DNA of 63,334 nt, counting the filler, from Candidatus Lindowbacteria bacterium RIFCSPLOWO2_12_FULL_62_27 (lineage in GTDB: Bacteria > Lindowbacteria > 2-12-FULL-62-27), in assembly GCA_001784175.1 (NCBI GenBank). It is 4 parts of 4 records of this genome, joined end to end, with 100 filler letters (N's around TTAATTAATTAA, not from the genome) between each part and the next. Parts side by side here need not be neighbours in the genome. Positions count along the whole stretch, not along the records: positions 1 to 8,714 come from MFPR01000007.1; 3 more parts are not named here. One strand, 5' to 3'. The translations under genes were made by a program, and so were the position numbers. Below, piece by piece: positions 1-59,300 of this stretch. The notes beneath the pieces were generated by a model. It worked only from the letters and a program-made list of their open reading frames with translations, made no database searches and was not told the DNA's origin. Position 1 is the first letter of the stretch. Every line of letters starts with the position of its first letter.

Positions 1-461
1 ACCCCCGCGAACGGCGTGGCCGCCTTCGTGTCCCACGTTCCACTTGATATGGAATACGTGAACATGCGGTTCGTCGCATTGTTGATCATGACGTAGAGCG
101 TGTCGCCCGATCCGGTATACACCATCGCGCCGCCCTCGTCGACGGCGTACGGGGTGCTCGCCATCGCCGTCCATGAGTTGCCGCTCATGGAATAGGCGTA
201 GAACCAGGGGCTGGAATTGCCGGCAACCGCATAGATGGTGTCGCCCGATCCCGGATACGCGAGCGATCCGCCGTTGGCCACGGTGACGGGAAGGCCGGCC
301 CGAGTCGTCCACGTATCTGTCGCGGCCCAGGCCGGAGCCGGGAAAGTGAGAACGCAGTAATGCAACAATGCGGCAATACCGGCCAATCGCAACATCCTGT
401 TGCGACCGGGACGGAAACCCCCACCCGAACAAAGATTCAGGATCCTGTTGACCATCGACAT
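1..461 (-). CDS. Secreted kelch-repeat (beta-propeller) protein, 3' truncated by the window edge
   Basis: Manual translation, not in the ORF track: ...MLRLAGIAALLHYCVLTFPAPAWAATDTWTTRAGLP..GGSLAYPGSGDTIYAVAG...SGNSWTAMASTP..GGAMVYTGSGDTLYV...SGTWDTKA. Shows a signal peptide and kelch GG/Y/W spacing. Start is 461 (GGAGG upstream) or 395. Confidence 0.75.
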   Translation of the reverse strand, partial: MSMVNRILNLCSGGGFRPGRNRMLRLAGIAALLHYCVLTFPAPAWAATDTWTTRAGLPVTVANGGSLAYPGSGDTIYAVAGNSSPWFYAYSMSGNSWTAMASTPYAVDEGGAMVYTGSGDTLYVMINNATNRMFTYSISSGTWDTKAATPFAG

Positions 462-517
462 CTTTGAATTCCCTCCACCAACCCTGCCGCCCCCGGGGAC
501 CCTCCCCGCACAGGCCA

Positions 518-621
518 ATTGTCGCCCGCGGCCGGAGAAAATCAATCCAAGAAAAATACGTATTTTCGGAGTTAAACTCGCCTTTTAAGGCGAGTTTGGG
601 GGTCTTCATCGGAATCCATCG
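518..621 (-). promoter_or_regulatory. Duplicated promoter/operator block, copy 1 (upstream of the kelch gene)
   Basis: Minus-strand TTGATT-N16-GACAAT; palindromes AAAATACGTATTTT and AAACTCGCCTT-TT-AAGGCGAGTTT (574-597); similar to 5342-5443. Confidence 0.6.
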
Positions 622-625
622 GTCG

Positions 626-689
626 GCCTCGGTGTCAGGTTGACACATTTACACATTCGTCCCGGATTTGGCCGGTCGAAACAGCGCCG
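626..689 (+). repeat. Single arm of the GGTGTCAGGTTGACACATTTACACATT palindromic element, copy 1
   Basis: Near-identical to 1797-1861; the reverse complement of its first ~34 bp occurs at ~39809-39842. Confidence 0.9.
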
Positions 690-719
690 GCCCCGTCGTC
701 CCGATGCCGACGTTGCCGG
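684..719 (-). repeat. GNVGIGT-coding stub 1 (GNVGIGTTGPA)
   Basis: Identical to 1910-1945; begins ~14 bp after the aspartyl protease stop codon. Confidence 0.85.
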
Positions 720-732
720 ATTTGGATGTCGA

Positions 733-1095
733 CTATACGGCGGGTAGACTGGGGAGTGCAACTAACTTTCGGTTTACAGGATCGACCATCAGCCCGAAAG
801 CTTCCAGGGCATGAGCGCCGAGAAGAACCGGGGAATCCTCGTCACCGAAAACGGCGATGCAGTGCCGATATTCACCGTTAATGTGAATCAGGACGTCGCA
901 ACAATCGCGTTCGATCACCTCGCCCGTCGCAATCTTGAAGGGACGGTGAAATTCCGCTTTGACGCCCTCGGCCTTCAAGAGCGAGGCGGGAATCCAGGAA
1001 TAAAACGCGCCCGTATCCACGAGCGCGTCGAGCCGCCGTTTCTTGGCCGGCGTTTGAGGATTGGCAAACCAGATTTCAGATGTGAATGCTCCCAT
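733..1095 (-). CDS. Clan AA (retropepsin-like) aspartyl protease
   Basis: ALVDTGA catalytic motif and LLGAHALE..GLMVDP C-terminal motif; 120 aa. Confidence 0.85.
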   Translation of the reverse strand: MGAFTSEIWFANPQTPAKKRRLDALVDTGAFYSWIPASLLKAEGVKAEFHRPFKIATGEVIERDCCDVLIHINGEYRHCIAVFGDEDSPVLLGAHALEAFGLMVDPVNRKLVALPSLPAV

Positions 1096-1209
1096 GCCGA
1101 CATTCTATCGAAGGTTGTCTCCTTGGTCAACGGTTGCGCCATGCCCGGTCGGCGGCGGAGTCCCATTTGAAAATGCACGCATCTCAGGATACACTCTGGA
1201 ATATAGATC

Positions 1210-1464
1210 ATGCCTACAGTCTTGTTTGTTCATGGGTGGAGATTTTACTTTTACGCAAATGAGAGAAACGAGCCGATCCATGTCCATTGCCGGAAGGGGG
1301 ACAAAGAGTGCAAATACTGGCTGTTGACGGATGTGTTCGGTATTGCGGAGGCGTATTCGTACAATTTGTCACCGGCCGACAAACGTCAGGTGAGAAAAAT
1401 CATCTTCGCGCATTTTGAATACATTGAAAGCGAATGGAATAATTTTAAAGGAGGCAGGCGATGA
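1210..1464 (+). CDS. DUF4160 family protein (TA pair component)
   Basis: MPTVL..GWRFYFYANE..EPIHVH signature; ATGA overlap with the next gene. Confidence 0.85.
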   Translation: MPTVLFVHGWRFYFYANERNEPIHVHCRKGDKECKYWLLTDVFGIAEAYSYNLSPADKRQVRKIIFAHFEYIESEWNNFKGGRR

Positions 1465-1712
1465 CAAAATACCATGACGTGGAAGCGGTTCGATTCAAAG
1501 GTGACACGATGCTCTTGAGGGTCGACGGCAAAAACTACAAAATAGATTTAAGGAAACATTCCGCGCGTCTGACAGGCGCGGACCCGCGCGTCAAAAAAAA
1601 TTATGCCGTTTCTCCGTCCGGTTATGGCATTCATTGGCCCGACGTTGATGAAGATCTTTCGATCGACGCCTTGATTGGTATAAACCATAAAATCCCTCAA
1701 TCCACTTTCTAA
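1461..1712 (+). CDS. DUF2442 family protein (TA pair component)
   Basis: GYGIHWPDVDEDLSIDAL signature; usual partner of DUF4160. Confidence 0.85.
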   Translation: MTKYHDVEAVRFKGDTMLLRVDGKNYKIDLRKHSARLTGADPRVKKNYAVSPSGYGIHWPDVDEDLSIDALIGINHKIPQSTF

Positions 1713-1724
1713 TTTCCGCCGCGC

Positions 1725-1785
1725 TCCTCCGCGGTGAAATGATCCGCTGACCCGCCGCCGACTTTGGACGCGCCGCCGTTGACCG
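1725..1785 (-). pseudogene. Collapsed remnant of an S74 cassette (VNGGASKVGGGS plus a 3' flank motif)
   Basis: 1752-1785 matches 7426-7459 at 33/34 bp; 1725-1739 is identical to 7027-7041; same order, with the interior missing. Confidence 0.7.
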
Positions 1786-1796
1786 AGGGCCTCGGT

Positions 1797-1861
1797 GGCC
1801 TCGGTGTCAGGTTGACACATTTACACATTCGTCCCGGATTTGGCCGGTCGAAACGGCGCCG
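1797..1861 (+). repeat. Single arm of the GGTGTCAGGTTG palindromic element, copy 2
   Basis: Near-identical to 626-689. Confidence 0.9.
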
Positions 1862-1887
1862 TACATACGGAGGCGCGGTAGACCGTT

Positions 1888-1945
1888 CAACCATTTACAT
1901 CCAACCTCCGCGCCGGCCCCGTCGTCCCGATGCCGACGTTGCCGG
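1888..1945 (-). repeat. GNVGIGT-coding stub 2 (GNVGIGTTGPARRLDVNG*)
   Basis: Minus-strand translation; 1910-1945 is identical to 684-719. Confidence 0.85.
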
Positions 1946-1968
1946 TCGGCCGTAACGACTTGTTATGT
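1944..1968 (-). other. Putative left half of an integron attC site
   Basis: Minus strand ACATAAC-AAGTCGTTACGGCCGACC overlaps the toxin TAA and resembles attC R''/L''; no right half found. Confidence 0.45.
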
Positions 1969-2221
1969 GCGCTTCTTCCAATGTGTAGGGGATCTACTGC
2001 CATGCTGAGTCACAACCTGCGTCGAATGTCGGCCACAGCGGATGCGGCCGGCCGGCCGGGAGTCTTGTCAATCTCGTAGGCATCCAGCCGCCGGTCTATC
2101 TCCGCCTTCTGCTCGTCTGTCATGGGTAACGCGCGCGCTGATCGGCCGCGATGCTGTCCCACAGATCCTCAACGAGATGAACCCGCTCGTCAATCGGAAG
2201 CTCTTTAAGTTTGGAATTCAT
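1963..2221 (-). pseudogene. Decayed addiction module: frameshifted TIGR02574-like antitoxin (2010-2221) and internally deleted ParE/RelE-like toxin (1963-2013)
   Basis: MNSKLKELPIDERVHLVEDLWDSIAADQ, then a +2 shift in a (CG)n run (~2131-2138), then LPMTDEQKAEIDRRLDAY...IRRRL*. Overlapping GTG ORF VTQHGSRSPTHWKKRT*. Promoter TTGCTC-N17-TAGAAT upstream. Confidence 0.75.
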
Positions 2222-2360
2222 GGCGCCACCTCCCACAGATGTGAGCATATTCTATCACGATGGGAGCGGCCGAGCAAGGCGAACCGTTCCTCGTACGTGA
2301 ATAATCGACACATTCGCCTTATATGACGAGTTTTCGGGCCTTCGATTGAATCTTCCGTAT

Positions 2361-2981
2361 CTACGACGCGACCGGCACGCATATCTCCGTCTTCAGATTC
2401 TCGGGCTTCGTGCGTTTCGGATTGTTCAAGTAGATTTCGTAGCCTGGCACGTCCCGAAGTTTGGCGCCGCTTGAAGGCAGCCACTGCGAGAAAATGGCGT
2501 TGTAGGTTTCGCCCAGCTTCTCGTAGGGTCCAGCATGCAGAAAGACGGCGTACTTGCCGCCCGCGATGGCCTGCACGCCGGCGTCGCCTTTGGGCTTGAC
2601 GGCCTTGTGCAGATCAACGCAGGCGTCGTAGCGGAGATTCTCCTCGGGCGTGACGTTCGGGTTGTCGTGCGGGATGCCGATGCATTCGACGCGGCGATTG
2701 AACAGAAACTTCGACCACACCGCCTTCATGAGCGCCTCCCACGCGGCCCCAGCCGCTTTGGAATACTCTCCGGTCTTTCTTACATACAACACCTGTCGTT
2801 CGGGCATGTCTCGAAATTCAGGGTTCATCGGAATGACCTCCTTGAGGATTGCAGCGAGCACCAGCCGCTGCGGCCGCGGCGCGTTCCAGACGGGCGCGCC
2901 GGACATGTTGTTGGCCTCGATGTAAGCCAGCACTCGGTTCAATCGTTCCACATGGTCCTTGACGGTAACTTCCCGCGACAT
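2361..2981 (-). CDS. GyrI-like effector-binding domain protein, apparently an AraC/GyrI regulator lacking its HTH
   Basis: GIPHDNPNVTPEENLRYDAC, GGKYAVFLHAGPYE and YEIYLNNP motifs; AraC-type N-terminal helix ERLNRVLAYIEAN with no HTH following. Confidence 0.8.
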   Translation of the reverse strand: MSREVTVKDHVERLNRVLAYIEANNMSGAPVWNAPRPQRLVLAAILKEVIPMNPEFRDMPERQVLYVRKTGEYSKAAGAAWEALMKAVWSKFLFNRRVECIGIPHDNPNVTPEENLRYDACVDLHKAVKPKGDAGVQAIAGGKYAVFLHAGPYEKLGETYNAIFSQWLPSSGAKLRDVPGYEIYLNNPKRTKPENLKTEICVPVAS

Positions 2982-3117
2982 GCCGAATGTTTATCTCCCT
3001 CCCATCGGCCCCGCTATTCCGATCTTGCTATCTTTTTTACGATCGTGTGGTCTTCCCCGAATTTGCACATGGCGTCGCAATCCCGTCTTGACGCTGTCCA
3101 CCGCGTCCCGTGATTCA

Positions 3118-4431
3118 TCATGCCCGGGGCCGGCCCATGGGCCGGACGATATACGTCGTAATGCCCTCCGCCACTCCCTTCACCTTCAGGCCCTCGCGCC
3201 GCTCGACGCTTGCGGGATCCGGCGGCGGATTCACGCGGCGAAACGACTCCTGCCCGAGCTGGATCGCATCCACGGGGCAGGTCGATTCGAGCCGCTGGGC
3301 CACGTTGACGGCCGAACCGACGCAGGTGAAGTCGCGCCGGGAGGACATGGCCCCGATGTCGCCCTGAATCACGGGGCCGGTGTTGATCCCGATGCGGATG
3401 TGAAACGCATCGGGATCGTTCTCGCGCAAGGCCGTCAACCGCGCCTGCATCCCGCATGCGGCCGCGAAGGCGGCGGTCGCGCCACAATCCTCTTCCCCTT
3501 CGAAAACGGTCATGATCGCGTCCCCGATGAACTTGTCAATCATGCCGCCGTTGCGGGTCACGATCGGCGCCATCTCCTCCAGATACCGGTTGAGCCGCCG
3601 GACGATCTCGGCCGCGGGCGTCGTCTCGGTGAGCGGCGTGAATCCGGCCACGTCCGAGAAGAGGATCGTCATCTCCCGGCTTCGGGCGGCGCCCTCGTCG
3701 CTCCCGGTCGCCCGCCGATGCGCCGCCTCCCAGGCCGACTTCGGGACGTAGTGAAGGAGTTCGCGCTTCGCCCGCATGCCTTCGACGAGACGATTGAAGA
3801 TGGCGGCGAGATCGCCGACCTCGTCCTTTGTTCGAAGTTCGACCCGCACGTCGAGATCGTCGGACTCGAGACGTTTCATGCCGAACGCGAGCGTCGCGAG
3901 CGGCACGGTGATGCCCCGCGCGACGAGAATCGAGAAGAAGACGGCGACCAGAATCGCGACCGCCCCGAGCGTGACCGCGCGGCCGATGAGACTGCGGCGC
4001 GCGGCGTGCAGGCGCGTGGCGTCGAAGGCGACCTCGATCCGGCCGATCTCGCGGGGAGTCTCCCCGGGGGACGAAACCGTGATGGGGCGGACGACGCGGT
4101 GGGCGTCGGGCGGAACGGTCCCCCACTCGCTTCCCAGATCGAGCGTTTGCCCGTCGTCGCCCAGGACCGAAATCGATCGAAGGTCCCCGTACACCCGGCC
4201 GATCTCGCGCAGGACTTCGCGCGTGTTGTCCGGATCGATCACCTCGTTGGCGAGGAGCGTCTCGAGGAGCACGGGAGAGAGCGTGGTCGCGAGCGCCTCC
4301 GCGGATTCCCGGTACCGCGTCTCGATCGCGGCGCGTTCTCTTTGATAGTTCACGAAAAGCGTGAGCGCAGTCCCCTCAAGAATTCCGACCACGAGGATGG
4401 CCGCGATCTTGTGCCAGAGCCTGATTCTCAT
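3118..4431 (-). CDS. Membrane class III adenylate cyclase (2 TM, HAMP, cyclase domain)
   Basis: FSDVAGFT, IDKFIGD, GINTGPVIQGDIG..DFTCVGSAVNVAQRLE; HAMP DEVGDLA..FNRL; start at 4431 overlaps the upstream stop. Confidence 0.9.
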   Translation of the reverse strand: MRIRLWHKIAAILVVGILEGTALTLFVNYQRERAAIETRYRESAEALATTLSPVLLETLLANEVIDPDNTREVLREIGRVYGDLRSISVLGDDGQTLDLGSEWGTVPPDAHRVVRPITVSSPGETPREIGRIEVAFDATRLHAARRSLIGRAVTLGAVAILVAVFFSILVARGITVPLATLAFGMKRLESDDLDVRVELRTKDEVGDLAAIFNRLVEGMRAKRELLHYVPKSAWEAAHRRATGSDEGAARSREMTILFSDVAGFTPLTETTPAAEIVRRLNRYLEEMAPIVTRNGGMIDKFIGDAIMTVFEGEEDCGATAAFAAACGMQARLTALRENDPDAFHIRIGINTGPVIQGDIGAMSSRRDFTCVGSAVNVAQRLESTCPVDAIQLGQESFRRVNPPPDPASVERREGLKVKGVAEGITTYIVRPMGRPRA

Positions 4432-5315
4432 TCCGGAAGCCGCCCGTGTCCCGAGAGCGTGGCCGCGACCCGGCGTACCGTTACGAACTGCGTGTCCGAG
4501 ACCGCGCCGAAAGGATGCGGCGACCCGGTGCGCGCGTCCGGGGCGAGGAGCGCGGCGCGGATGCGCTCCGCGAGGGCGGGATCGCGCGCGAGGAAGGAGC
4601 GGGAGAAGGCGACGCACCAGTTCGGAAGGAGGGGCGTTTCGGCGATGATGCGCACGCGCGCGCGTTCCGCCTCCGGGACGTGGCCGGCATACGCATGCGG
4701 GTAGGTGAACCCGGCGTCGTACCGCCCCTCCTTCAGGTGGATCAGGACGTTGGCGTGCGACCCGACGCCCGTGAATGAGGCGAAGTCATGGAACGGATCG
4801 ATGCCGGCATCGAGGCACATCGCAAGCGGATAGAGGTATCCGGAGGCGGAGTGGAGGTCCACATACGCCACACGCCGCCCGCGAAGGTCCGCAAGCGTTC
4901 GGATATCGGGAGCGGCGGCGACGACGAGACCGCAGTACGACGTCGAATCATCCTGAATCGGCCCCGCGACCGGCTCGACCCCGGCCTCCTGCCGCGCGCG
5001 GACGTAGTCGAAGGGCGCGAGGTCGACGATGTCGTACGCATTCTCGCGCACACGCGCATGGAAAACCTGAGGATCCCCCAGAACCCGGATTCGGACGCGG
5101 ACCCCGATCCGCTCTTCGAGATAGTCGGCCCGCACCGCGAGGCTTCGCGCCATGCCGCGCAGGTCGAGACTGCTCGAGGCCATGACCACCACGGGAGCGG
5201 TTTCGGCGGTGTCGCGCGATGCGCCCCCGGTCGGATTCGGCGCGATCGGGCCGGGCGACGGCCCACAGCCGATGCAGGCGGCGGCGAGGACGCAGAGGAA
5301 GAATGTTTTAGTCAT
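4428..5315 (-). CDS. Phosphate/phosphonate (PhnD-like) substrate-binding lipoprotein
   Basis: Lipoprotein-like signal; IRTLADLRGRRVAYVDLHSASGYLYP; GSHANV. Confidence 0.8.
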   Translation of the reverse strand: MTKTFFLCVLAAACIGCGPSPGPIAPNPTGGASRDTAETAPVVVMASSSLDLRGMARSLAVRADYLEERIGVRVRIRVLGDPQVFHARVRENAYDIVDLAPFDYVRARQEAGVEPVAGPIQDDSTSYCGLVVAAAPDIRTLADLRGRRVAYVDLHSASGYLYPLAMCLDAGIDPFHDFASFTGVGSHANVLIHLKEGRYDAGFTYPHAYAGHVPEAERARVRIIAETPLLPNWCVAFSRSFLARDPALAERIRAALLAPDARTGSPHPFGAVSDTQFVTVRRVAATLSGHGRLPE

Positions 5316-5341
5316 GGCACGTCACCCAACAACACCGGGCG

Positions 5342-5443
5342 ATTGTCCCCCGTGGCCGGCTGAAATCAATCCCGGAAAAAGACGTATTTTCAGAGATAAA
5401 TTCGTCTTACATGGCGAGTTTGGGGCCTTCGCCGGGACTATCG
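5342..5443 (-). promoter_or_regulatory. Duplicated promoter/operator block, copy 2 (between the binding protein and the divergent XRE gene)
   Basis: Similar to 518-621, including TTGATT-N16-GACAAT. Confidence 0.6.
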
Positions 5444-5477
5444 AAACCGTTCGAAAAGAGATAGGGTGGAACCTGCC

Positions 5478-5864
5478 ATGAAAGGCGACGGCGGTTCGGT
5501 TACGGCACGGGAGTTGAAACATCTCGGCGGGCGGCTTCGCGGCCTGCGCAAAGACATGGGCGTGACCCAGGCGGACCTCGCGCGGCGGGCCGGGATCGAT
5601 CCGCGGTACTACTCCCGCATCGAGCGGGGGCAGGTGAACGCGACGTTTCAGACGCTGATGAGGCTCACGCGGACCCTGCGCGTCTGCCCCGGTATTCTAT
5701 TTTTTCCGGCGTCGCGCATGGACGGGTCGATGGCCGCCGCCTGCGCGTGCCTCTCGCAGATGAAATCGGCCGGCCGCCGCCGGCAACTGGATCAAGTCGT
5801 CTCCTTCGCCCGGCATGTCCTGGGCGTGAGGCCCCGATTGAGAGGCGCCCGGCGTATTCCATAA
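5478..5864 (+). CDS. XRE-family HTH transcriptional regulator
   Basis: LRGLRKDMGVTQADLARRAGIDPRYYSRIERG. Confidence 0.85.
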   Translation: MKGDGGSVTARELKHLGGRLRGLRKDMGVTQADLARRAGIDPRYYSRIERGQVNATFQTLMRLTRTLRVCPGILFFPASRMDGSMAAACACLSQMKSAGRRRQLDQVVSFARHVLGVRPRLRGARRIP

Positions 5865-6058
5865 AGAAGCTCGCGGGAGATCTCTTCCATCTCGACCCTG
5901 CGGGTCACGATCGGCTCCATCTCCTCCAGATACTAATCAGTTCATCTTCGCTGCATATTTTTTATTCAACAATTCAACGCCTGGCGCCATGACCCATGAA
6001 GACCTGAATCAAAACTGGACTTTGTATCGAGAGCGTTTTTTAATGGAGGTGGCAAGGC

Positions 6059-6367
6059 ATGCCGAATAAAACGAAGACGGCATCGGGCGGCAAGGAGGGA
6101 GCGTTGTGGGAATTGCAGCGCGTCCTTTCCACGGAATTCAGCAAATATGTTCTGGCTCATCCGGAATTGGATGTACAAATACCGGACGGCGCGCAAATCG
6201 TATTTCATATGGAAGATAATCCGGAATTCAACAGGTGGGCCCGGAAAGTTGCCCATTCACAGATGGCGAAAAATCAGCCCATGATCGTGATAAAAGTAGC
6301 CGGGCTTTCTCCCGTACCTCCCTCGCGGTTGATCAACCCGCAGGTTGACTTAAGTCCCGCGACTTGA
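6059..6367 (+). CDS. DUF5647-like small protein
   Basis: LSTEFSKYVLAHPE...IPDGAQIVF..EDNPEF; GGAGG RBS. Confidence 0.65.
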   Translation: MPNKTKTASGGKEGALWELQRVLSTEFSKYVLAHPELDVQIPDGAQIVFHMEDNPEFNRWARKVAHSQMAKNQPMIVIKVAGLSPVPPSRLINPQVDLSPAT

Positions 6368-6416
6368 AAAATTATCTGTTCATGGGTGGGTCTTGAAGCC
6401 GCTCTTTCCGCGTCGA

Positions 6417-6469
6417 ATTCCCTAGAACATGTTTCTGTTGCGAAACAACTTAACAACTTACGGTCTGGC
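6417..6469 (+). repeat. 53-bp direct repeat, copy 1 (TAGAACATGTTT...AACAACTTAACAACTTACGGTCTGGC)
   Basis: 50/53 identical to 8556-8608. Confidence 0.9.
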
Positions 6470-6478
6470 CCCTGAAGC

Positions 6479-6524
6479 CCAGTTTCCCCCCCGGAGCCGT
6501 GCTCCCGATGCCGACGTTGCCGGC
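6479..6524 (-). repeat. GNVGIGT-coding stub 3 (AGNVGIGSTAPGGKL)
   Basis: Closely matches 7831-7872. Confidence 0.85.
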
Positions 6525-6581
6525 TTTCTTTAGCAGACCCGGAGGGTGGATAAGGAAGACGATCTGGAGCGTTGTTTGGGA

Positions 6582-6683
6582 TTAGTTTTTCGGCGGATCG
6601 GAAAGATACATCACAACGCCGAATAACCCAAATGCGCCGGCGCCAAGATACAGAGCCAACAGAACCACTGATGTCGCATCCAT
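6582..6683 (-). CDS. 33-aa membrane peptide
   Basis: MDATSVVLLALYLGAGAFGLFGVVMYLSDPPKN*, directly after 6686-6940. Confidence 0.45.
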   Translation of the reverse strand: MDATSVVLLALYLGAGAFGLFGVVMYLSDPPKN

Positions 6684-6685
6684 GA

Positions 6686-6940
6686 TTAAACTTTACCCCC
6701 GTTTAATTTCTTTGTCAACCAGACGGCCGCAACCATAAGCGCCAATCCAAGCGCGACACCTGCCAAGTCGAAAGATATTCTGGCTTGGTCCTTTACAAGG
6801 ATTGCATCCGCGACGCCGCCCGTCAGAGCGGCCAGTCCCAAGGTATTGATGTTTTCAATGGTACGCTCCCATTGTCTCGTCGTCAGTCTCATCGCCTCTA
6901 TATATTTCGGCAGGTCGTCGATTTGGCGTGAATCCTCCAA
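6686..6940 (-). CDS. Small hypothetical membrane protein
   Basis: 84 aa with two hydrophobic segments; start uncertain. Confidence 0.55.
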   Translation of the reverse strand: MEDSRQIDDLPKYIEAMRLTTRQWERTIENINTLGLAALTGGVADAILVKDQARISFDLAGVALGLALMVAAVWLTKKLNGGKV

Positions 6941-7055
6941 CGCCGCAGGCCGCCACTCAGTTGCGCCGTGACCTCCGCAAGTTCCGACGAGAGGGGACGT
7001 ATCGATGAATCACTCTTTCCTCTGCGTCCTCCGCGGTGAAAAATGTTTGTCTCGA

Positions 7056-7876
7056 TTATCTCGCGCCTTCTATCGCCCCCACTTTCTTCGTGAGTGCGTC
7101 GATCTGCGCCTGTTGTTCCTGAACCACCGTTTGCAATTTGTCGTTTGCCGCCTTCTGCTCCTTGACGGCGTTCAGCATAGCCCAGATGATGGGATCGTTG
7201 TCGAGCATCAGGTAGCCCTTGTTGCTGGACGAGATCGCGGCGGGAATCGCCTCCTGGACCTCCTGGGCCACAAGGCCGATATGTTCGGCGCGGTCGCGGA
7301 TGCCGGCGCCGTTTTCCTTTTTGTACCGGTATCGCACGGGATTCAGTTTCATGACCGCGTCCGTCCCGGGCGTATAAGCGCCTTCCACGTCCTTGAGCCG
7401 CCCGTCCGAAAACGTCGCCCACGATCCGCCGCCGACCTTGGACGCGCCGCCGTTGACCGTCAAGGTCGTATCCGGCGACACCGTGCCGATTCCGACGTTG
7501 CCGGAAGCCAAGATATTAACGCCATTATTCTCGTTGGGAACACCGGTGCCTGTCCCGACGACTAAGATAAGCCTGGTGTCGTTGAAGCGGATGTCAGCAC
7601 GGTTGGAGGCGGAGCCGAATCCGCCGCCAAAGATGAACCCGGAGTTGCCGTGGGGTTCGTAATCCGGATGTCCCCGCCCGTCCCACCGGTGGCGAAGTCG
7701 GCAGAACCGTTCACTGATAGGAGACTCGCGGGCGAGTCTGTCCCGACTCCGACCTTGCCGCTCTTTAATACAACCAATCGCGTATCTCCCACCGCAAGCG
7801 AATCCGAAACCAGGACACTGCCTACGACATCCAGTTTCCCCCCCGGCGCCGTGGTCCCGATGCCGAAGTTCCCCGA
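7056..7876 (-). pseudogene. Start-less, frameshifted fibre/adhesin C-terminal cassette with a peptidase S74 intramolecular chaperone
   Basis: GNFGIGT, GKVGVGT and GNVGIGT repeats; frameshift near 7652; WATFSDGRLKD, LNPVRYRYK, HIGLVAQEVQ, coiled-coil end; begins just after the DUF5615 stop. Confidence 0.8.
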
Positions 7877-7881
7877 GAGGG

Positions 7882-8217
7882 CTAAGGCCAATCGTCTCCG
7901 GTCTTATACCGGGAGAAATCCGAATCGATAAAAGTTTCCATGAACTTGGGTACGAAAATATCGGCCGTGTCTTGCTGGAGAGCCACGCGCAGAACCTTGA
8001 CGGCCGTGGAAGATGACAATTTCATTAGCCGCACAGAACGCGCAAAGCCGGCGTCTTTGGTGAAGAAAATATCGTAGGCGTGGGCTACTTCCCGATAGAG
8101 CGTCCCGTTTTTTGTGCCCTTTAAACGAAGCCGGTTGATGGATGTTGCCTCGTGTCCCGCCCGACGCAATTCGGGAACGAGAGACTCGGGAAGGTTTTCG
8201 TCGAGAAGAATTTTCAC
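7882..8217 (-). CDS. DUF5615 PIN-like toxin (VapC45-like)
   Basis: MKILLDENLP...AGHE...FTKDAGF. Confidence 0.85.
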   Translation of the reverse strand: MKILLDENLPESLVPELRRAGHEATSINRLRLKGTKNGTLYREVAHAYDIFFTKDAGFARSVRLMKLSSSTAVKVLRVALQQDTADIFVPKFMETFIDSDFSRYKTGDDWP

Positions 8218-8429
8218 ACGGAAGCCAGAGCGCGGGAACCTGCCAGCTCACGCAGAACGCCGCGAATCGACTTTGCGGTCAGGCTCGGATACTCCTTCGT
8301 GATTTTCTCGATTGACATCCCGCAGGCGATCAACTCCAGGAGAAGCGAAATCGAGATGCGCGTGTCCCTGACCCTCGGCTCCCCGCCCAAATGATCCTTG
8401 TCCGACACGATCCATTTGGCTTTTCTCAT
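8214..8429 (-). CDS. DUF433 antitoxin
   Basis: HLGGEPRVRDTRISI...GMSIEKI..EYPSLT. Confidence 0.9.
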   Translation of the reverse strand: MRKAKWIVSDKDHLGGEPRVRDTRISISLLLELIACGMSIEKITKEYPSLTAKSIRGVLRELAGSRALASV

Positions 8430-8555
8430 ATCCCAAGACTACCCCATAGCCTCCCGCCAGTCAAACGACAGCGGCCCGCCACTGAATTCTGAACCGAAAC
8501 CGGAAAGGTTCAATTTTTTTTCAACACATGAAATATCCGGGCTATATGCAATGTT

Positions 8556-8608
8556 ATTCCTTAGAACATGTTTTTGTTGCGGAACAACTTAACAACTTAC
8601 GGTCTGGC
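8556..8608 (+). repeat. 53-bp direct repeat, copy 2
   Basis: See 6417-6469. Confidence 0.9.
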
Positions 8609-8714
8609 GCCGGAAATCCCCGAGGCCGTCCAGCGTTGCCGCTGATCGCTGTTCTTCCAGCTTGCCACGCGGCCAGTGTATTGTCCGATCTGGCTGTTGA
8701 GCGACTCGATGCAG

Positions 8715-8814
8715 NNNNNNNNNNNNNNNNNNNNNNNNNNNNNNNNNNNNNNNNNNNNTTAATTAATTAANNNNNNNNNNNNNNNNNNNNNNNNNNNNNN
8801 NNNNNNNNNNNNNN
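8715..8814. other. Artificial contig linker
   Basis: N run with TTAATTAATTAA (stops in all frames). Confidence 0.97.
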
Positions 8815-19043: not shown

Positions 19044-19143
19044 NNNNNNNNNNNNNNNNNNNNNNNNNNNNNNNNNNNNNNNNNNNNTTAATTAATTAAN
19101 NNNNNNNNNNNNNNNNNNNNNNNNNNNNNNNNNNNNNNNNNNN
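19044..19143. other. Artificial contig linker
   Basis: N run with TTAATTAATTAA. Confidence 0.97.
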
Positions 19144-19145
19144 AC

Positions 19146-22100
19146 GGCACGTCGCCGTTGACGGTGTCGACGTCGGACTCGATCGCGCCGGTGGTGTCGG
19201 ATTCGGATCAGAACCTGAACGGGGATGCGGTGGAGACGGTGACGGTGACGATCACGAACGGCGTGACGGGGGAGACGGAGGTGCTGACGCTGACGGAGAC
19301 TGGAAAAAATACGGGCGTGTTCGACATTGCGGGACTGACGCTGTCGATTCTGCCGGGCGATTCGACGAGCGTCAGCGGCAAGCTGTACGTGAAGCCGGGC
19401 GACACGGTGACGGCGAAATACACGGATCCGACGGACGGGAGGGATTCATTCACGACGCCGTCGATCAGCGTCGTGCCGGATACATCCAACAGCTACGGCA
19501 CGTCGCCGTTGACGGTGTCGACGTCGGATTCGATTGCGCCGGTGGTGTCGGACTCGGATCAGAACCTGAACGGCGCCGCGGTGGAGACGATCACAGTCAC
19601 GATCACCAACGGCGTGACGGGCGAGACGGAGACGCTGACGCTGACGGAGACGGGGAAGAACACGGGCGTGTTCGACATTGTAGGGCTCACGCTGTCGATT
19701 CTGCCAGGCGATTCGACGAGTGTCAGCGGCAAGCTGTACGTGAAGCCGGGGGACACGGTGACCGCAAAATATACGGACCCGACGGACGGGAGGGACTCGT
19801 TCACGACGCCGTCGATCGGCATCGTGTCGGACACATCCAACAGCTACGGCACGTCGCCGTTGACGGTGTCGACGTCGGACTCGATCGCGCCAGTGGTGTC
19901 GGATTCGGATCAGAACCTGAACGGGGATGCGGTGGAAACGATCACGATCACGATCACCAACGGCGTGACGGGGGAGACGGAAGTGCTGACGCTGACGGAG
20001 ACTGGAAAAAACACGGGCATCTTCGACATCGGGGGACTGACGCTGTCGATCCTGCCGGGCGATTCGACGAGCGTCAGCGGCAAGCTGTACGTGAAGCCGG
20101 GCGACACGGTGACGGCGAAATATACGGACCCGACGGACGGGAGGGACTCGTTCACGACGCCGTCGATTGGCGTCGTGCCGGACACGGCCAACTCGTCGAG
20201 TACGGCGTCCTCGCCGGTCAACACGGGCGATTCGGTGTACGTGACGGTGACGGACAGCGACCAGAACCTGGACGGNNNNNNNNNNNNAGCGACCAGAACC
20301 TGGACGGGAGCGCGGTGGAGACGGTGACAGTGACGGTGACGAACTGGACGACGGGGGAGACGGAGGTCGTGACGCTGACGGAGACGGGCAAGAACACGGG
20401 AATCTTCGGCCTGGCGGGACTTCCGACGAGCACGAACGCGTCCGATTCCACGGGCAACACAGGGAAGCTGTATGTGCGGTCCGCGGACACGTTCAGCGCG
20501 AAGTATGTCGATCCGACGGACGCGAGGGACTCCGCCACGACCTCGACGGGGCAATTCCAGTTGACATCGACCGTATCTTCCGGCGTATTCCCAACTGTTC
20601 TCAAGATCGGGGACTCTGTTGCGCCGGCCATCACGGACACGGACCAGAACCTGAACGGCACGGTGACCGAGACGGTGACGGTCACGATCACGAATCAGAC
20701 GACGGGCGAGACGGAGACGCTGACGCTGACGGAGATCGGAACGAACGGCAGTATCTTCGATATCGCGGGCCTTCTGACGAGCGTGACCTCCGCCGATTCC
20801 ACAAACAATTCCGGGAAGCTGTACGTTCGGTCGGGGGATACGCTGACGATCAAATACACGGACCCGACGGACGGTACGGACAGCGTGACGTCGGGGACTA
20901 TCACGATGATTCCGGACACGGCGACGAGTTACGGCACGTCGCCGTTGACGGTGTCGACGTCGGACTCGATCGCGCCGGTGGTGTCGGACTCGGATCAGAA
21001 TTTGAACGGCGACGCGGTGGAGACGGTGACGGTGACGATCACGAACTGGATGACGGGCGAGACGGAGATTCTGACGCTGACGGAGACGGGGAAGAATACG
21101 GGGGTATTTGACATCGGAGGACTGACGCTGTCGATCCTGCCGGGCGATTCGACAACCGGAAGCGGGAGGATGTACGTGAAGCCGGGCGACACGGTGACGG
21201 CGAAATACACGGACCCGACGGACGGGAGGGACTCGTTCACGACGCCGTCGATCAGCGTCGTGCCGGACACGGCGAAGTCCGCGATATCGGCGACCTCGTC
21301 CCCCGCCATTGGCGATTCGGTCTACGTGATGGTGACGGACAGCGATCAGAACCTGAATGGTGCCGCGACGGAAACGATCACCGCGACGGTGACCAACTGG
21401 ACGACGGGGGAGACGGAGGTCGTGACGCTGACGGAGACGGGCAAGAACACGGGAATCTTCGGCCTGGCGGGACTTGTGACAAGCACGAGCGCGTCCGATT
21501 CCACAAGCAGCACGGGAAAGCTGTACGTGCGGTCCGCGGACACGTTCAGCGCGAAATACATCGACCCGACGGACGCGAAAGACTCCGCCACGACTTCGAC
21601 GGGGCAGTTCCAGCCGTCGCCGACGGCGTCGTCGGGGATATTCCCGACGGTGCTGATTCTTGGCGATTCGGTGTCGGCGACGATCACGGACACGGACCAG
21701 AACCTGAACGGCACGGTGACCGAGACGGTGACGGTGACGATCACGAACCAGACGACGGGCGAGACGGAGACGCTGACGCTGACGGAGATCGGAACGAACG
21801 GTAGCCTCTTTGACATCGCGGGCCTTGCGACGAGCGTGAATCCCGCCGATTCCACGAACAATTCCGGAAAACTGTACGTTCGCGCGGCGGACACGCTGAC
21901 GATCAAATACATCGACCCGACGGACGGCACGGATAGCGTGACGTCCGGGACGATCACGATGATCCCGGACACGACGACGAGTTACGGCACGTCGCCGGTG
22001 TCTGTGTCGACGGCGGACTCGATTGCGCCGATCGTGTCGGACTCGGATCAGAACCTGAACGGGGACGCTGTGGAGACGATCACGGTGACGATCACGAACG

Positions 22101-50255: not shown

Positions 50256-50355
50256 NNNNNNNNNNNNNNNNNNNNNNNNNNNNNNNNNNNNNNNNNNNNT
50301 TAATTAATTAANNNNNNNNNNNNNNNNNNNNNNNNNNNNNNNNNNNNNNNNNNNN
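50256..50355. other. Artificial contig linker
   Basis: N run with TTAATTAATTAA. Confidence 0.97.
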
Positions 50356-56300: not shown

Positions 56301-59300
56301 CAGGTGACCGTCTACGTCGGAAACGCCGCGGACGGTCTTGTGCTGGACACCGAAACGCTCGTGCTGACCGAAAGCGCCGAAACGACGGGCATATTCCAGC
56401 GCGGACCCTTCGCCTTGGCGGACACGGAAGCCCCGGCCGCTCAGAACGGGCGCCTCACGTGGGGCCGGGACGACACGATGCAGGCCGTCTACACGGATGT
56501 GACCGGCGCCGCCGAGAGTTCCTACGACACGGCGCTGGCGATCGAGATCAAGGCGAACAGCATCGTCAAGTTTTACGAAGACGCCGCCTTTACGGACGAG
56601 GTCGACACCTTCCTTCCGAGGAACGACGTGGTCTACATCGAAGTGTTGGACACGGACATGAACGTCGACCCGCAGACGGCGGAGAATTTCACAGTATCGG
56701 TCATTGTCCACAACGACACGGACGGAACAACCGTCGGCGGCACGGAACTGATCACGGTGACGGAGGTGGGCGTGGCGAGCGGCAGATTCCGGAGCGGCGC
56801 CGTGCCGATTGTGGATACAGCGACGCCGGCCGGCAGCAACGGCGTTTTGGAAGTCGGCTTGAATGACACCATAAACGTGGAATATGCCAGCGACGACAAC
56901 GATCCGGGGGATGTGAGCAACGACACCGCGTTGATCGTGGACGCCCCGACCGCCGCCGTTCTGGCTTTTTATCAGGCCGCGTTTTCCGCCGTTACGGACA
57001 CGTACCGCGTGCGGCTGGACGCGGTATTGATCCAAGTGACCGATGCCGACGAGAATCGCAATCCGCAGGTGAAAGATACGGTATTCGTGACGGTCTACGT
57101 GGGGAACGTCGGCACGGGTTCTCCCAGTCAGGTGTTGGACCGGCAGGACACGTGGGTGCTGACGGAGACGGGCGAGACGACGGGCATTTTCCAGGGCGCG
57201 GGACTTGGCGTTTTCGACACGGTTGCCGGCACCCTCAATGATGGCCGGTTGCAGGGCGGCTTGGACGACACCCTGCACGTGACCTACACGGACGCGAACG
57301 ACGCGCCGGACGCGTGGAGCGACACGGCGCTCCTGGTGGACGCGCCGACGGCGGCGACCATCGCCTTTTATGATTCAACCGGATTTGTCGTGCAGACCGA
57401 CACCTATCAGGCGGACGGGGATGTCGCGTTTGTCCTGGTGATCGACACGGACGAAAACCAGAATCCGAATCTGGCCGACACGATCGTGGTTGAGCTGACC
57501 GTCTGGAACGCGAACGGCACAGGCGGCGGATACGTGGATACGCTGTATGTGACCTTGACGGAACGCGGTCCCCGCACAGGATATTTCCGGAGCGACACCG
57601 TGGCCACGACGCGCACGGATTCGGACCTGTCGGACACGTATCTTCTGACCGGCGTGGGCGACACGATCCAAGCGCTTTACGTCGACGAGAATTCCGCGTC
57701 CGATCGTGTCGTCGACACGGCGCTGGTGGTGGATGTCCTGTCGGCGAGTCTTACCCGGATTTTCGAGGACGCCGCCTTTACGGACGAAATCGACACGGCG
57801 ATGAGCCGGGATGTTCTCTACATTCAGGTCATCGACACCGACGAGAATCGAAATCCGCAATCCAAAGATTCGGTCACGGTGACCGTGTATGTCGGTGACG
57901 ACGCCGCGGGACTCGTCATCGACACCGAGTCCCTGACGCTGAACGAAACAACAGATACCTCCGGCGTTTTCCAGAGCGCCGCCATCAACACCGTCGACAC
58001 CGACGCCGTGGCGCTGGCCAACAACGGGCGGCTGGGTGTGGGGCGGTCGGACACGGTGCACGTGGCGTACAGCGACGGGAATTCCACGGATGCGACGTGG
58101 GACACCGTCCTGATCCTCGGCCCCCAGGTGACGTTGACGGCGCCGGCGAACGCCGCGGAGACGACCGCGGCGGCGATCCGGTTCGAGTGGTCCGGGACGA
58201 ACGTCGACACCTACACGTGGCAGATGGCGCGATCGGCGGCGTTTTCGACGATTGTCGACAGCGCGGTCGATACGACCGTCACGTCGATGATCCGGGTGAT
58301 CACGGCGGGTCAGGACACGTTTTTCTGGCGCGTGATCGGTCGAAACGCGACCGGCAGTACGGACACGTCGGCCGCGCGCGGGTTTTTGCTGGACACGTCC
58401 GCGCCGCAGGTGGCTTTGGCGCAGCCCGCGGATGGACACGAGACGACGAACACGGCGGTGATCGTATCGTGGACGACGCCGGCGGACAGCACGGGGATCG
58501 ACAGCTTCGTGGTGGAGGCGTCGACGACGGCGGGGTTTTCCGCGGTCGTGTTCGTGGATACGACAGATAGGACGAATACGACAGATACGATCACTGGCTT
58601 GTACAACGACACCTATTACTGGCGCGTGCGCGCGATCGACGATCTGGGGAATGTCGGGCCGAACTCGGCCGTGCGCGGCTTTGTCGTGGACACGGCAGCC
58701 GGTCAGGTGGCGTTGTCGAGTCCGGCGGACGGCGCGCAGACGGTGAACGCGTCGGTGGCGCTGGCGTGGGTGGCGCCGTCGGACAGCGTGGGGATTGACT
58801 CGTATGTGGTGGAGGTATCGAAAACCTCGGGGTTTGCGGCGACGGTGGTGGTCGACACGGTGGATGGCGCGGTAACAACCGATACCCCGAGCGGTCTGTA
58901 CAACGACACGTATTTCTGGCGGGTGCGCGCGGTCGACGATCTGGGGAATGTGGGCGCGAACTCGACGGCGCGCGGGTTCCTGCTGGACACGGGCGGCCCG
59001 GCGCAGGTGACGGCGTCGAGCCCGGCGGACGGGGCGCAGCAAAACAGCGCGGTGACGGTGATCTGGAATGCGGTGACGGGGGATTCAAGCGGGATCGACA
59101 GTTACGTGGTCGAGGTTTCAAAGAGTTCAGGATTCACGTCGACGATCTCGGCCGACACAGTGGACGGCGCGGTGACGTCGCAACTCCTGAGCGGGTTGTA
59201 CAACGACACATACTACTGGCGGGTACGCGCGATCGACGGCGCCGGAAACACGGGCACGAACTCTGCGGTGCGCGGATTCNNNNNNNNNNNNNNGACACGG

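Follow-up and report, generated by a model that had tools for sequence, protein, structure and literature searches.

Orphaned 3' ends of S74-type fibre genes start at a conserved GNVGIG(T) coding motif on an accessory contig of a Lindowbacteria bacterium

The window analysed in this study is a stretch of 63,334 nucleotides (nt) from Candidatus Lindowbacteria bacterium RIFCSPLOWO2_12_FULL_62_27, and its first 8714 positions carry four segments which are orphaned 3' parts of S74-type surface-fibre genes. These pieces start at a short coding motif, GNVGIG(T), that is a real breakpoint on both of its sides. Judged from its frozen codons and from mosaic boundaries in relatives, the motif is probably a short-homology recombination joint. 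The array of pieces is best read as the relics of serial C-terminal displacement in an island rich in toxin-antitoxin (TA) genes and not as a working switch, a reading to which we assign a probability of about 0.5. A sequence-only reading of the same DNA had proposed an operating system that swaps fibre tips and captures cargo genes at this motif. That interpretation was partly supported: a recombination joint with orphans beginning at it is upheld, a dedicated capture system is not.

According to a metagenome scan, positions 1-8714 are one complete 8714-nt metagenome contig. The 63-kb window consists of separate contigs placed one after another, and the pieces beyond 8714 are not contiguous with the first. 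The contig area is a small, heavily rearranged accessory contig rich in TA genes, with debris that comprises the repeats D3 and D4, a cyclase fragment and a split antitoxin gene. Three genomes of the same phylum, G001, G002 and G003, served for comparison.

Orphan fibre pieces and their junctions

The DNA of the motif, taken as a 20-mer, occurred on the contig in six copies with at most three mismatches, against an expectation of 0.01 and with none of 100 shuffled sequences reaching six. All six lie on the minus strand; those at 698 and 1924 are exact, the copy at 6502 has one mismatch, those at 7483 and 7854 have two and the one at 7740 has three. Four of them head 5'-truncated fibre pieces, termed stubs 1 to 3 and the long copy (Table 1), at a distance of 8-66 nt behind unrelated genes. 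This bears out the earlier description of four co-oriented minus-strand pieces placed right behind unrelated genes, an arrangement that was also found in a second genome (G002). Stub 2 lies 66 nt past the stop of an antitoxin gene, stub 3 lies 60 nt past an open reading frame (ORF) of 33 amino acids (aa; 6582-6683), and the long copy follows the DUF5615 gene (7882-8217) after 8 nt. The first 36 nt of stubs 1 and 2 are identical behind two different genes, and repeat D3 is common to both (98% identity); stub 3 and the long copy share 91% identity behind two other different genes. Two further details of the earlier description stood only in part. The pieces were said to begin with the motif, and all four do so, but the fibre-like sequence possibly begins up to about 15-20 nt ahead of it. 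They were also said to have no start codon of their own, whereas the 38-aa ORF that encloses stub 2 has an ATG and an in-frame TTG (7891) precedes the long copy.

ORF 7056-7511 of the long copy matched Peptidase_S74 (PF13884) at residues 35-92 with an E-value of 1.3e-12 and 48.3 bits against a cut-off of 22, which places the domain at about 7236-7409. Among 3189 candidates scored, 1199 relatives of the S74 piece were found at E ≤ 0.001, and PF13884 was present in all 120 of the relatives listed. These relatives are named tail fiber domain-containing proteins and originate from Lindowbacteria, Terriglobia, Elusimicrobiota and others. The long copy had been described as a near-complete fibre C-terminus with an S74 chaperone; the domain is confirmed, but translation revealed a frame change near 7645-7655. 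Shifting frame near 7650, the long copy is therefore a pseudogene, and with the stop of another gene directly ahead it is not an intact full-length fibre gene. The collapsed copy reported earlier was also recovered. It retains the motif at 1924-1943 with the next 36 nt or so, 37 nt from the S74 N-terminus (1749-1785, 95% identity to 7423-7459 of the long copy) and the first 15 nt of the element that follows fibre genes (post-fibre element). All four window copies are thus defective, by frameshift, by collapse or by reduction to stubs of 36-46 nt.

The relatives showed what intact genes of this family look like and where their sequences switch. Contig C48 of G003 carries two fibre genes in tandem, both intact, with products of 1073 and 1397 aa (locus L222, 2489-5710 and 6176-10369), each composed of a hydrophobic N-terminus, read from its sequence as a signal peptide, followed by many GNVGIGT units and an S74 end. 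The N-termini of the two genes are identical and so are the C-termini, and the middle is a mosaic in which near-identical blocks are separated by unrelated ones, and all five internal block ends that were read lie at motifs. Each of these genes also lies near a four-helix-bundle gene of the 23S rRNA intervening-sequence type.

In G002, contig C206 begins exactly at a motif and presents, in this order, a fibre C-terminus, the same protease gene as in the window, the motif, a C-terminus of 401 codons and the post-fibre element. The 401-codon C-terminus is open and comprises six motif units and the S74 domain. Window positions 699-1143 matched G002:C206:868-1313 with 94% identity, and the match stops inside the motif; beyond the protease-motif junction the window continues with sequence of the stub 2 type and G002:C206 with an intact, different C-terminus. 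Two more orphans were found in G002. One, at G002:C23:2087, is a two-unit fibre fragment that follows a MazEF pair, starts from the motif and stops 150 nt short of a tRNA-Lys gene. On the other contig, G002:C104, an S74 end is followed by the post-fibre element, an 86-aa ORF, a 37-nt spacer and a two-unit fragment from the motif (C104:1509), and then by a tRNA fragment and IS21 genes. Both of these orphans end just upstream of tRNA genes (locus L223, 2441-2514; locus L231, about 1240-1280), and these fibre and TA islands therefore border the 5' side of tRNA loci.

Since intact copies also vary in their upstream DNA, an end was counted as lying at the motif when it fell within about 20 nt before it. 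By this measure the four window pieces and three pieces of G002 begin at the motif, and among independent 5' ends the proportion is six of seven. The motifs are spaced by a median of 93 codons (about 280 nt), and a rough binomial estimate of such clustering is about 1e-6. The same picture emerged from 158 motif-bearing stop-to-stop ORFs taken from viral, genome and Lindowbacteria loci, none of them at a locus edge. The first motif stood no more than 30 codons from the stop only in the window (four places), in G002 (two places, which appear several times in the set via overlapping loci) and in locus L070, where the short distance reflects a genuine N-terminus.

Codon conservation of the motif

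Codon use was tabulated for 47 motif copies from fibre ORFs of G001-G003. The first glycine of the motif is encoded by GGC in 41 of 47 copies, asparagine by AAC in 32 of 35, valine by GTC in 41 of 45, the second glycine by GGC in 37 of 47, isoleucine by ATC in 40 of 41, the third glycine by GGG in 27 of 43 and threonine by ACG in 29 of 42. Codon choice is free at equally conserved residues located a few codons from the motif: proline at +9 (CCG 28/45), leucine at +13 (TTG 15, CTG 14, CTC 8), valine at +15 (GTG 20, GTC 12, GTT 8) and glycine at +17 (GGC 16, GGA 11). The frozen synonymous sites that the sequence-only reading had expected of a DNA site are hence present in this lineage, in which the motif codons are nearly fixed.

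A universal DNA site is nevertheless rejected. Across other phyla, 94 motif copies from loci selected by protein had codons that track codon usage and GC content. The exact 20-mer was present in at least 120 viral contigs, but other synonymous versions were as common there, the AT-rich and GGC versions with at least 120 contigs each and the GTG version with 89. The freeze is not mere codon bias either, because the IMG/VR contig L055 (7022 nt), which consists of one ORF of more than 2340 codons with 45-47% GC and 20 motif copies, keeps a GC-rich 18-mer exact in 18 of the 20 copies amid AT-rich flanks. We read the freeze as concerted evolution confined to the motif and proceeding lineage by lineage, as repeated crossovers or conversion at a joint would yield. 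The proposal that the GNVGIG codons act as a crossover site is accordingly retained with regard to the breakpoint seen in relatives and not supported with regard to a dedicated DNA site, as the freeze looks lineage-wise.

Displacement at the motif and competing explanations

The frozen codons together with the mosaic boundaries suggest that fibre modules are exchanged at the motif by short-homology recombination. In this lineage nearly all repeats of the fibre genes keep the 18-20 nt that encode GNVGIG(T) identical while the surrounding DNA drifts, and no other stretch would have the length and identity that crossovers need. Excision between two motifs would yield a circle made of a motif, a new C-terminus and the downstream gene or genes. 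If this circle entered the resident gene at one of its motifs by Campbell-type insertion, the motif would be duplicated and the old 3' part would come to lie downstream of the incoming passenger gene. The predicted product, a fibre end followed by the post-fibre element, a passenger gene and the next motif, has the order present in the window and in G002. The sequence shows how displaced parts decay: stubs 1 and 3 have suffered deletion, stub 2 has collapsed, and 7056-7876 has a frameshift. The small genes, TA genes included, would be passengers of the island; their link to the motif is one of co-location only.

Several known systems offer parallels, and three of them, the orphan arrays of Rhs and CdiA, the phage adhesin gp38 and the PeSL cassettes, come closest in the way they work. 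Orphan modules of the Rhs, CdiA and MafB type are explained by a model of C-terminal displacement. The window pieces resemble the orphan C-terminal modules of these loci (PMC3150448) in being promoterless, 5'-truncated and co-oriented C-termini that start at a conserved coding motif with a small gene beside them, new tips displacing old ones. Unlike in Rhs, CdiA and MafB loci, the C-terminus is here a fibre tip with an S74 chaperone and not a toxin, the neighbours are TA pairs or other small genes (DUF5615/DUF433, protease-like, membrane ORFs) and not cognate immunity genes, no parent gene lies upstream on the window contig, and the retained conserved piece measures only about 20-40 nt. Crossovers within glycine-rich motifs are described for the T-even phage adhesin gp38 (PMC3157838, citing Tetart 1998), in which short glycine-rich coding motifs likewise part variable segments and serve as crossover points without extended homology. 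The gp38 case concerns a phage gene exchanged between phages and lacks both orphan arrays and passenger genes, whereas the present one concerns chromosomal genes with dozens of repeats in an uncultured bacterium. In T4-type phages, the regulatory cassettes termed PeSL (PMC2839356) involve short conserved sequences on both sides of small non-essential genes; recombination of these sequences shuffles modules and can release mini-circles. PeSLs are intergenic promoter-terminator units, whereas the repeat considered here is coding sequence inside a structural gene. No publication on GNVGIGT or on the DNA strings of the motif was found within the literature collection searched.

A number of observations weigh against displacement as the source of the array. 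One 5' end, G002:C23:76, lies 30 nt after the start of the motif and not before it, at the same point where stub 3 breaks off. Since no full-length fibre gene is present on the 8714-nt contig, displacement from a resident gene is only inferred, and the link between contigs C244 and C206 of G002 is a guess. A tract of 18-20 identical nt is short for recombination of the RecA type. Stubs of 36-46 nt are useless as donors. The related genomes number four, all of them fragmented metagenome bins, and stubs occurred in two of the four. The six junctions have a different upstream gene each and no common flank, and homologous exchange alone leaves the first origin of each junction unaccounted for. Possible answers are passenger turnover within the units or a site-specific enzyme; one hint of turnover is that the DUF4160/DUF2442 pair has been inserted when compared with G002.

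The promoterless C-termini might instead be silent cassettes of a working variation system, copied or moved at the motif into an expressed fibre gene elsewhere together with their neighbour genes. Neisseria pilE/pilS minicassettes and Borrelia vlsE are systems of 5'-truncated silent copies with variable blocks parted by short conserved DNA. The pieces described here are alike in their 5' truncation and in the short conserved DNA between variable blocks, but they are mostly degraded and interspersed with unrelated genes. The frozen joint, the mosaic paralogues, the common orientation of the orphans and the intact 401-codon orphan of G002:C206 behind a complete C-terminus and a protease gene would all suit such a system. 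All four window copies are defective, however, two of them being too short to donate, and no expression locus was present on any of the four orphan-bearing contigs. We regard a working system as unlikely, and the operating tip-swapping and cargo-capture system first proposed is not supported, given the same defective copies. Invertible shufflons of the Rci or Gin/Cin/Min type, in which copies of the crossover site are inverted and an invertase lies adjacent, differ further, as six of six motif copies lie on one strand and no recombinase ORF is present on the contig.

Plain decay would make the pieces independent deletion remnants of fibre pseudogenes, their common 5' boundary being due to chance or to a constraint that preserves the motif. 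Other remnants do abound on the contig (the split antitoxin gene, a 46-nt cyclase fragment at 5888-5933, pieces of D4), and the stubs have ragged 3' ends. This is opposed by the six of seven 5' ends within about 20 nt of a motif that recurs every 280 nt or so, and by the mosaic switch points on both sides of the motif, which render decay alone quite unlikely. A bolder proposal, which we hold to be rather improbable, holds that a new capture system, free of attC sites, has the frozen 18-20-mer as its true recombination signal. Cut out between two motifs, circles composed of motif, tip and neighbouring gene would re-insert at any other motif, perhaps helped in trans by an annealing or recombinase enzyme of host or phage, and the fibre gene would be both a tip switch and a landing pad for TA and other small genes.

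Site-specific integration appears very doubtful. Small mobile islands would use the motif as attachment site, bring a replacement 3' end and leave the former one behind, much as elements integrated in the E. coli icd gene leave the former 3' end as a fragment beginning at the core. The sharp 5' and ragged 3' boundaries of the pieces and the TA-rich cargo agree with this, as do the position of two G002 orphans immediately ahead of tRNA genes, with IS21 genes next to one of them, and the tyrosine recombinases in genomes of the phylum, which reach up to 158.6 bits on an integron-integrase model. On the other side, no integrase was found in the parts of the four orphan contigs that were read (8.7 and 3.4 kb entirely, the initial 7 kb of a 27-kb contig and the initial 5 kb of a 10.9-kb contig), the units measure only about 1.3 kb, the frozen tract is without dyad symmetry when the 20-mer is read by eye, and other lineages use other synonymous versions.

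Integron arrays are runs of small genes, often of TA type, that are separated by short repeats and on which a recombinase can act in trans; each cassette is followed by an attC site, a structured imperfect palindrome. An integron-like cassette array without integrase, its small genes bounded by D4 and the repeat at 5959-5994 and the fibre pieces mere bystanders, would account for cargo types that resemble integron cassettes, among them the GyrI-like gene with its additional match to Cass2. It would also fit the 97% copy of the 5959-5994 repeat in G003:C106, which stands among TA genes at a locus where an integrase of integron type has left a C-terminal remnant 1.5 kb away. The G003 cassettes lie on the wrong side of this remnant, however, and the window cargo occupies both strands, a mixed orientation that differs from integron arrays. 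Six candidate regions folded as single-stranded DNA (D3, D4, 5959-5994 and the stubs) gave z-scores of -0.99 to +0.32, so that no attC-like fold was better than in shuffled sequences. The best TIGR02249 matches in G001-G003 are partial, with 158.6 bits for the best single stretch against a cut-off of 265. ORF reading of the 8714-nt contig revealed neither an integron integrase nor any recombinase ORF, in line with the earlier statement that neither a recombinase nor a full-length fibre gene was in view. An array of this kind is highly improbable.

The soundness of the assembly was assessed in public data. The contig is present in seven public runs from four studies, and Logan contigs of four runs were aligned to it. 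In run X5 one Logan contig (6443-7808) spans stub 3 and both its junctions with 0 differences, and the junction between the DUF5615 gene and the long copy is spanned by Logan contigs (7796-8611) of runs X3, X4 and X5, again with 0 differences; X3 and X4 gave the same picture as X5 in shorter pieces. At stubs 1 and 2 the Logan unitigs end about 25 nt into the motif. Bins of the motif have a depth of 1720-7033 compared to about 6 elsewhere, and about 1000 contigs per run match both stubs, which indicates that the motif is common to very many organisms in the samples. That short-read graphs tangled at the repeated motif into chimeric joins is extremely improbable: the motif depth, the unitigs broken within the motifs of stubs 1 and 2 and the G002 contigs that begin or finish at motifs would fit, but a chimera at a common k-mer is unable to make a junction of cargo and motif, the third and fourth junctions are bridged without differences in several runs, and the protease-motif junction recurs in an independent assembly (G002). 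As far as they were testable, the outcomes that the sequence-only reading had named as refuting it did not occur. Apparent Logan joints between motif copies (e.g. 720 to 1913) were discarded as unusable; their sides are 21-29 letters long and common to many organisms. At 6298-6429, in the end of the DUF5647 gene and D4, all four runs contain another haplotype, which differs by 13 substitutions and a 1-nt deletion and is a strain variant or a paralogous copy.

Fibre genes with S74 ends abound in uncultured bacteria of soil and groundwater and in the viruses of these bacteria. If a 20-nt tract indeed stays identical for the exchange of modules, this would explain the diversification of giant adhesin-like proteins, and the tract would be a simple marker of module borders. 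The principle of the orphan C-terminus would then widen from toxin systems to surface fibres. Motifs of this kind also break and tangle short-read assemblies.

Neighbouring genes, repeats and contig structure

Table 1 Features of the 8714-nt contig (window coordinates)
Feature	Position	Strand	Remarks
Stub 1, 36-nt fibre remnant	684-719	-	Exact 20-mer at 698-717; 15 nt past the stop of ORF 733-1095
Stub 2	1888-1945	-	Exact 20-mer at 1924-1943 plus 36 nt; inside 38-aa ORF 1887-2003
Stub 3, 46-nt remnant	6479-6524	-	Motif at 6502-6521; 91% identity to long-copy start 7831-7873
Long copy, 5'-truncated frameshifted fibre C-terminus	7056-7876	-	Motifs at 7854-7873, 7740-7759 and 7483-7502
Collapsed fibre-unit end	1712-1785	-	S74 N-terminal piece and first 15 nt of post-fibre element
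Post-fibre element	7019-7041	-	23 nt; after S74 stops also in G002:C104 and G002:C206
Cargo gene, candidate retropepsin-like aspartyl protease	733-1095	-	Below Pfam cut-off; 94% DNA identity with G002:C206 through to the motif
DUF4160 and DUF2442 pair, TA-like	1210-1712	+	Homologous G002 unit without the pair
Unstab_antitox antitoxin gene	2010-2248	-	Split into two frames
GyrI-like gene	2361-2981	-	Also matches Cass2; block 2361-5864 between stubs 2 and 3
HAMP-cyclase	3118-4404	-	Block between stubs 2 and 3
Phosphonate-type binding protein	4428-5315	-	Block between stubs 2 and 3
XRE regulator	5466-5864	+	Block between stubs 2 and 3
DUF5647 gene	6059-6367	+	
Two small membrane-type ORFs (33 aa, 84 aa)	6582-6940	-	Between long copy and stub 3; no family
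DUF5615 (PIN-like) and DUF433 pair	7882-8429	-	Directly upstream of long copy
Repeat D3, copy A	625-689		98% identity to 1797-1861; follows stub 1
Repeat D3, copy B	1797-1861		Behind stub 2
Repeat D4, copy 1	6417-6476		92% identity to 8556-8615; abuts 3' break of stub 3
Repeat D4, copy 2, and IS256-like 36-aa C-terminal piece	8556-8714	-	Cut by contig end; tentative

The TA and small cargo genes that had been noticed between the fibre pieces were confirmed as DUF4160/DUF2442, DUF5615/DUF433, a split Unstab_antitox gene, a GyrI-like gene and DUF5647, whereas a supposed ParE remnant was without Pfam support. The aspartyl protease cargo is a candidate only, with 20.7 bits against a Pfam cut-off of 28.2. 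Seven loci with relatives of this protease were found in metagenomes, one of them being the window's own contig, and no motif was present anywhere in the five more distant loci examined (locus L244 is outside these five); the protease is therefore not generally tied to fibres. The pair of cyclase and binding-protein genes has 88% identity to G003:C141, where it stands in a different context, and the 46-nt remnant at 5888-5933 has 87% identity to an internal part of the cyclase gene (3541-3586).

Repeat D3 has a small palindromic core, and this core recurs at a few sites in G002 and G003. A core of about 30 nt of D4 recurs with 93-97% identity at several sites in G001, G002 and G003 and also at about 4135-4165 of locus L238; in G001:C209, D4 follows a second protease-like gene in a TA-rich island. 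D4 may be the end of an insertion sequence or a dispersed intergenic repeat. The 36-aa piece at the contig end matched the C-terminus of IS256-family transposases weakly (E 0.7), with no match in Pfam or in G001-G003. Copies of the post-fibre element are located at G002:C104:1921-1943, G002:C206:2470-2492 and G001:C209:11702-11798. It follows fibre stops in three loci and occurs elsewhere, as an inverted pair, in G001:C209. The element could be a terminator or mark the border of a small hairpin element. The G003:C106 copy of the 36-nt repeat at 5959-5994 lies between TA-type genes (locus L252, 495-525 and 2051-2359).

The N joins of the window are at 8715-8814, 19044-19143, 20276-20287, 50256-50355 and 59280-59293, and DNA on their two sides is not contiguous. 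Three of them are double blocks of 44 N flanking a 12-letter piece, which at 8759-8770 was read as a linker with stops in all frames; the remaining two are short N runs. A match to the Pseudomonas sRNA P4 of Rfam at 1816-1920 (plus strand) was rejected as probably due to chance, since it reached 30.8 bits against a gathering score of 37 and the aligned part consists of a few GC stems. A 93-nt repeat (509-601 and 5333-5425, 81% identity) lies upstream of two secreted-protein genes and is found again, together with an XRE gene, upstream of a beta-helix protein of 2682 aa in G003:C121; it is probably a common promoter or leader region.

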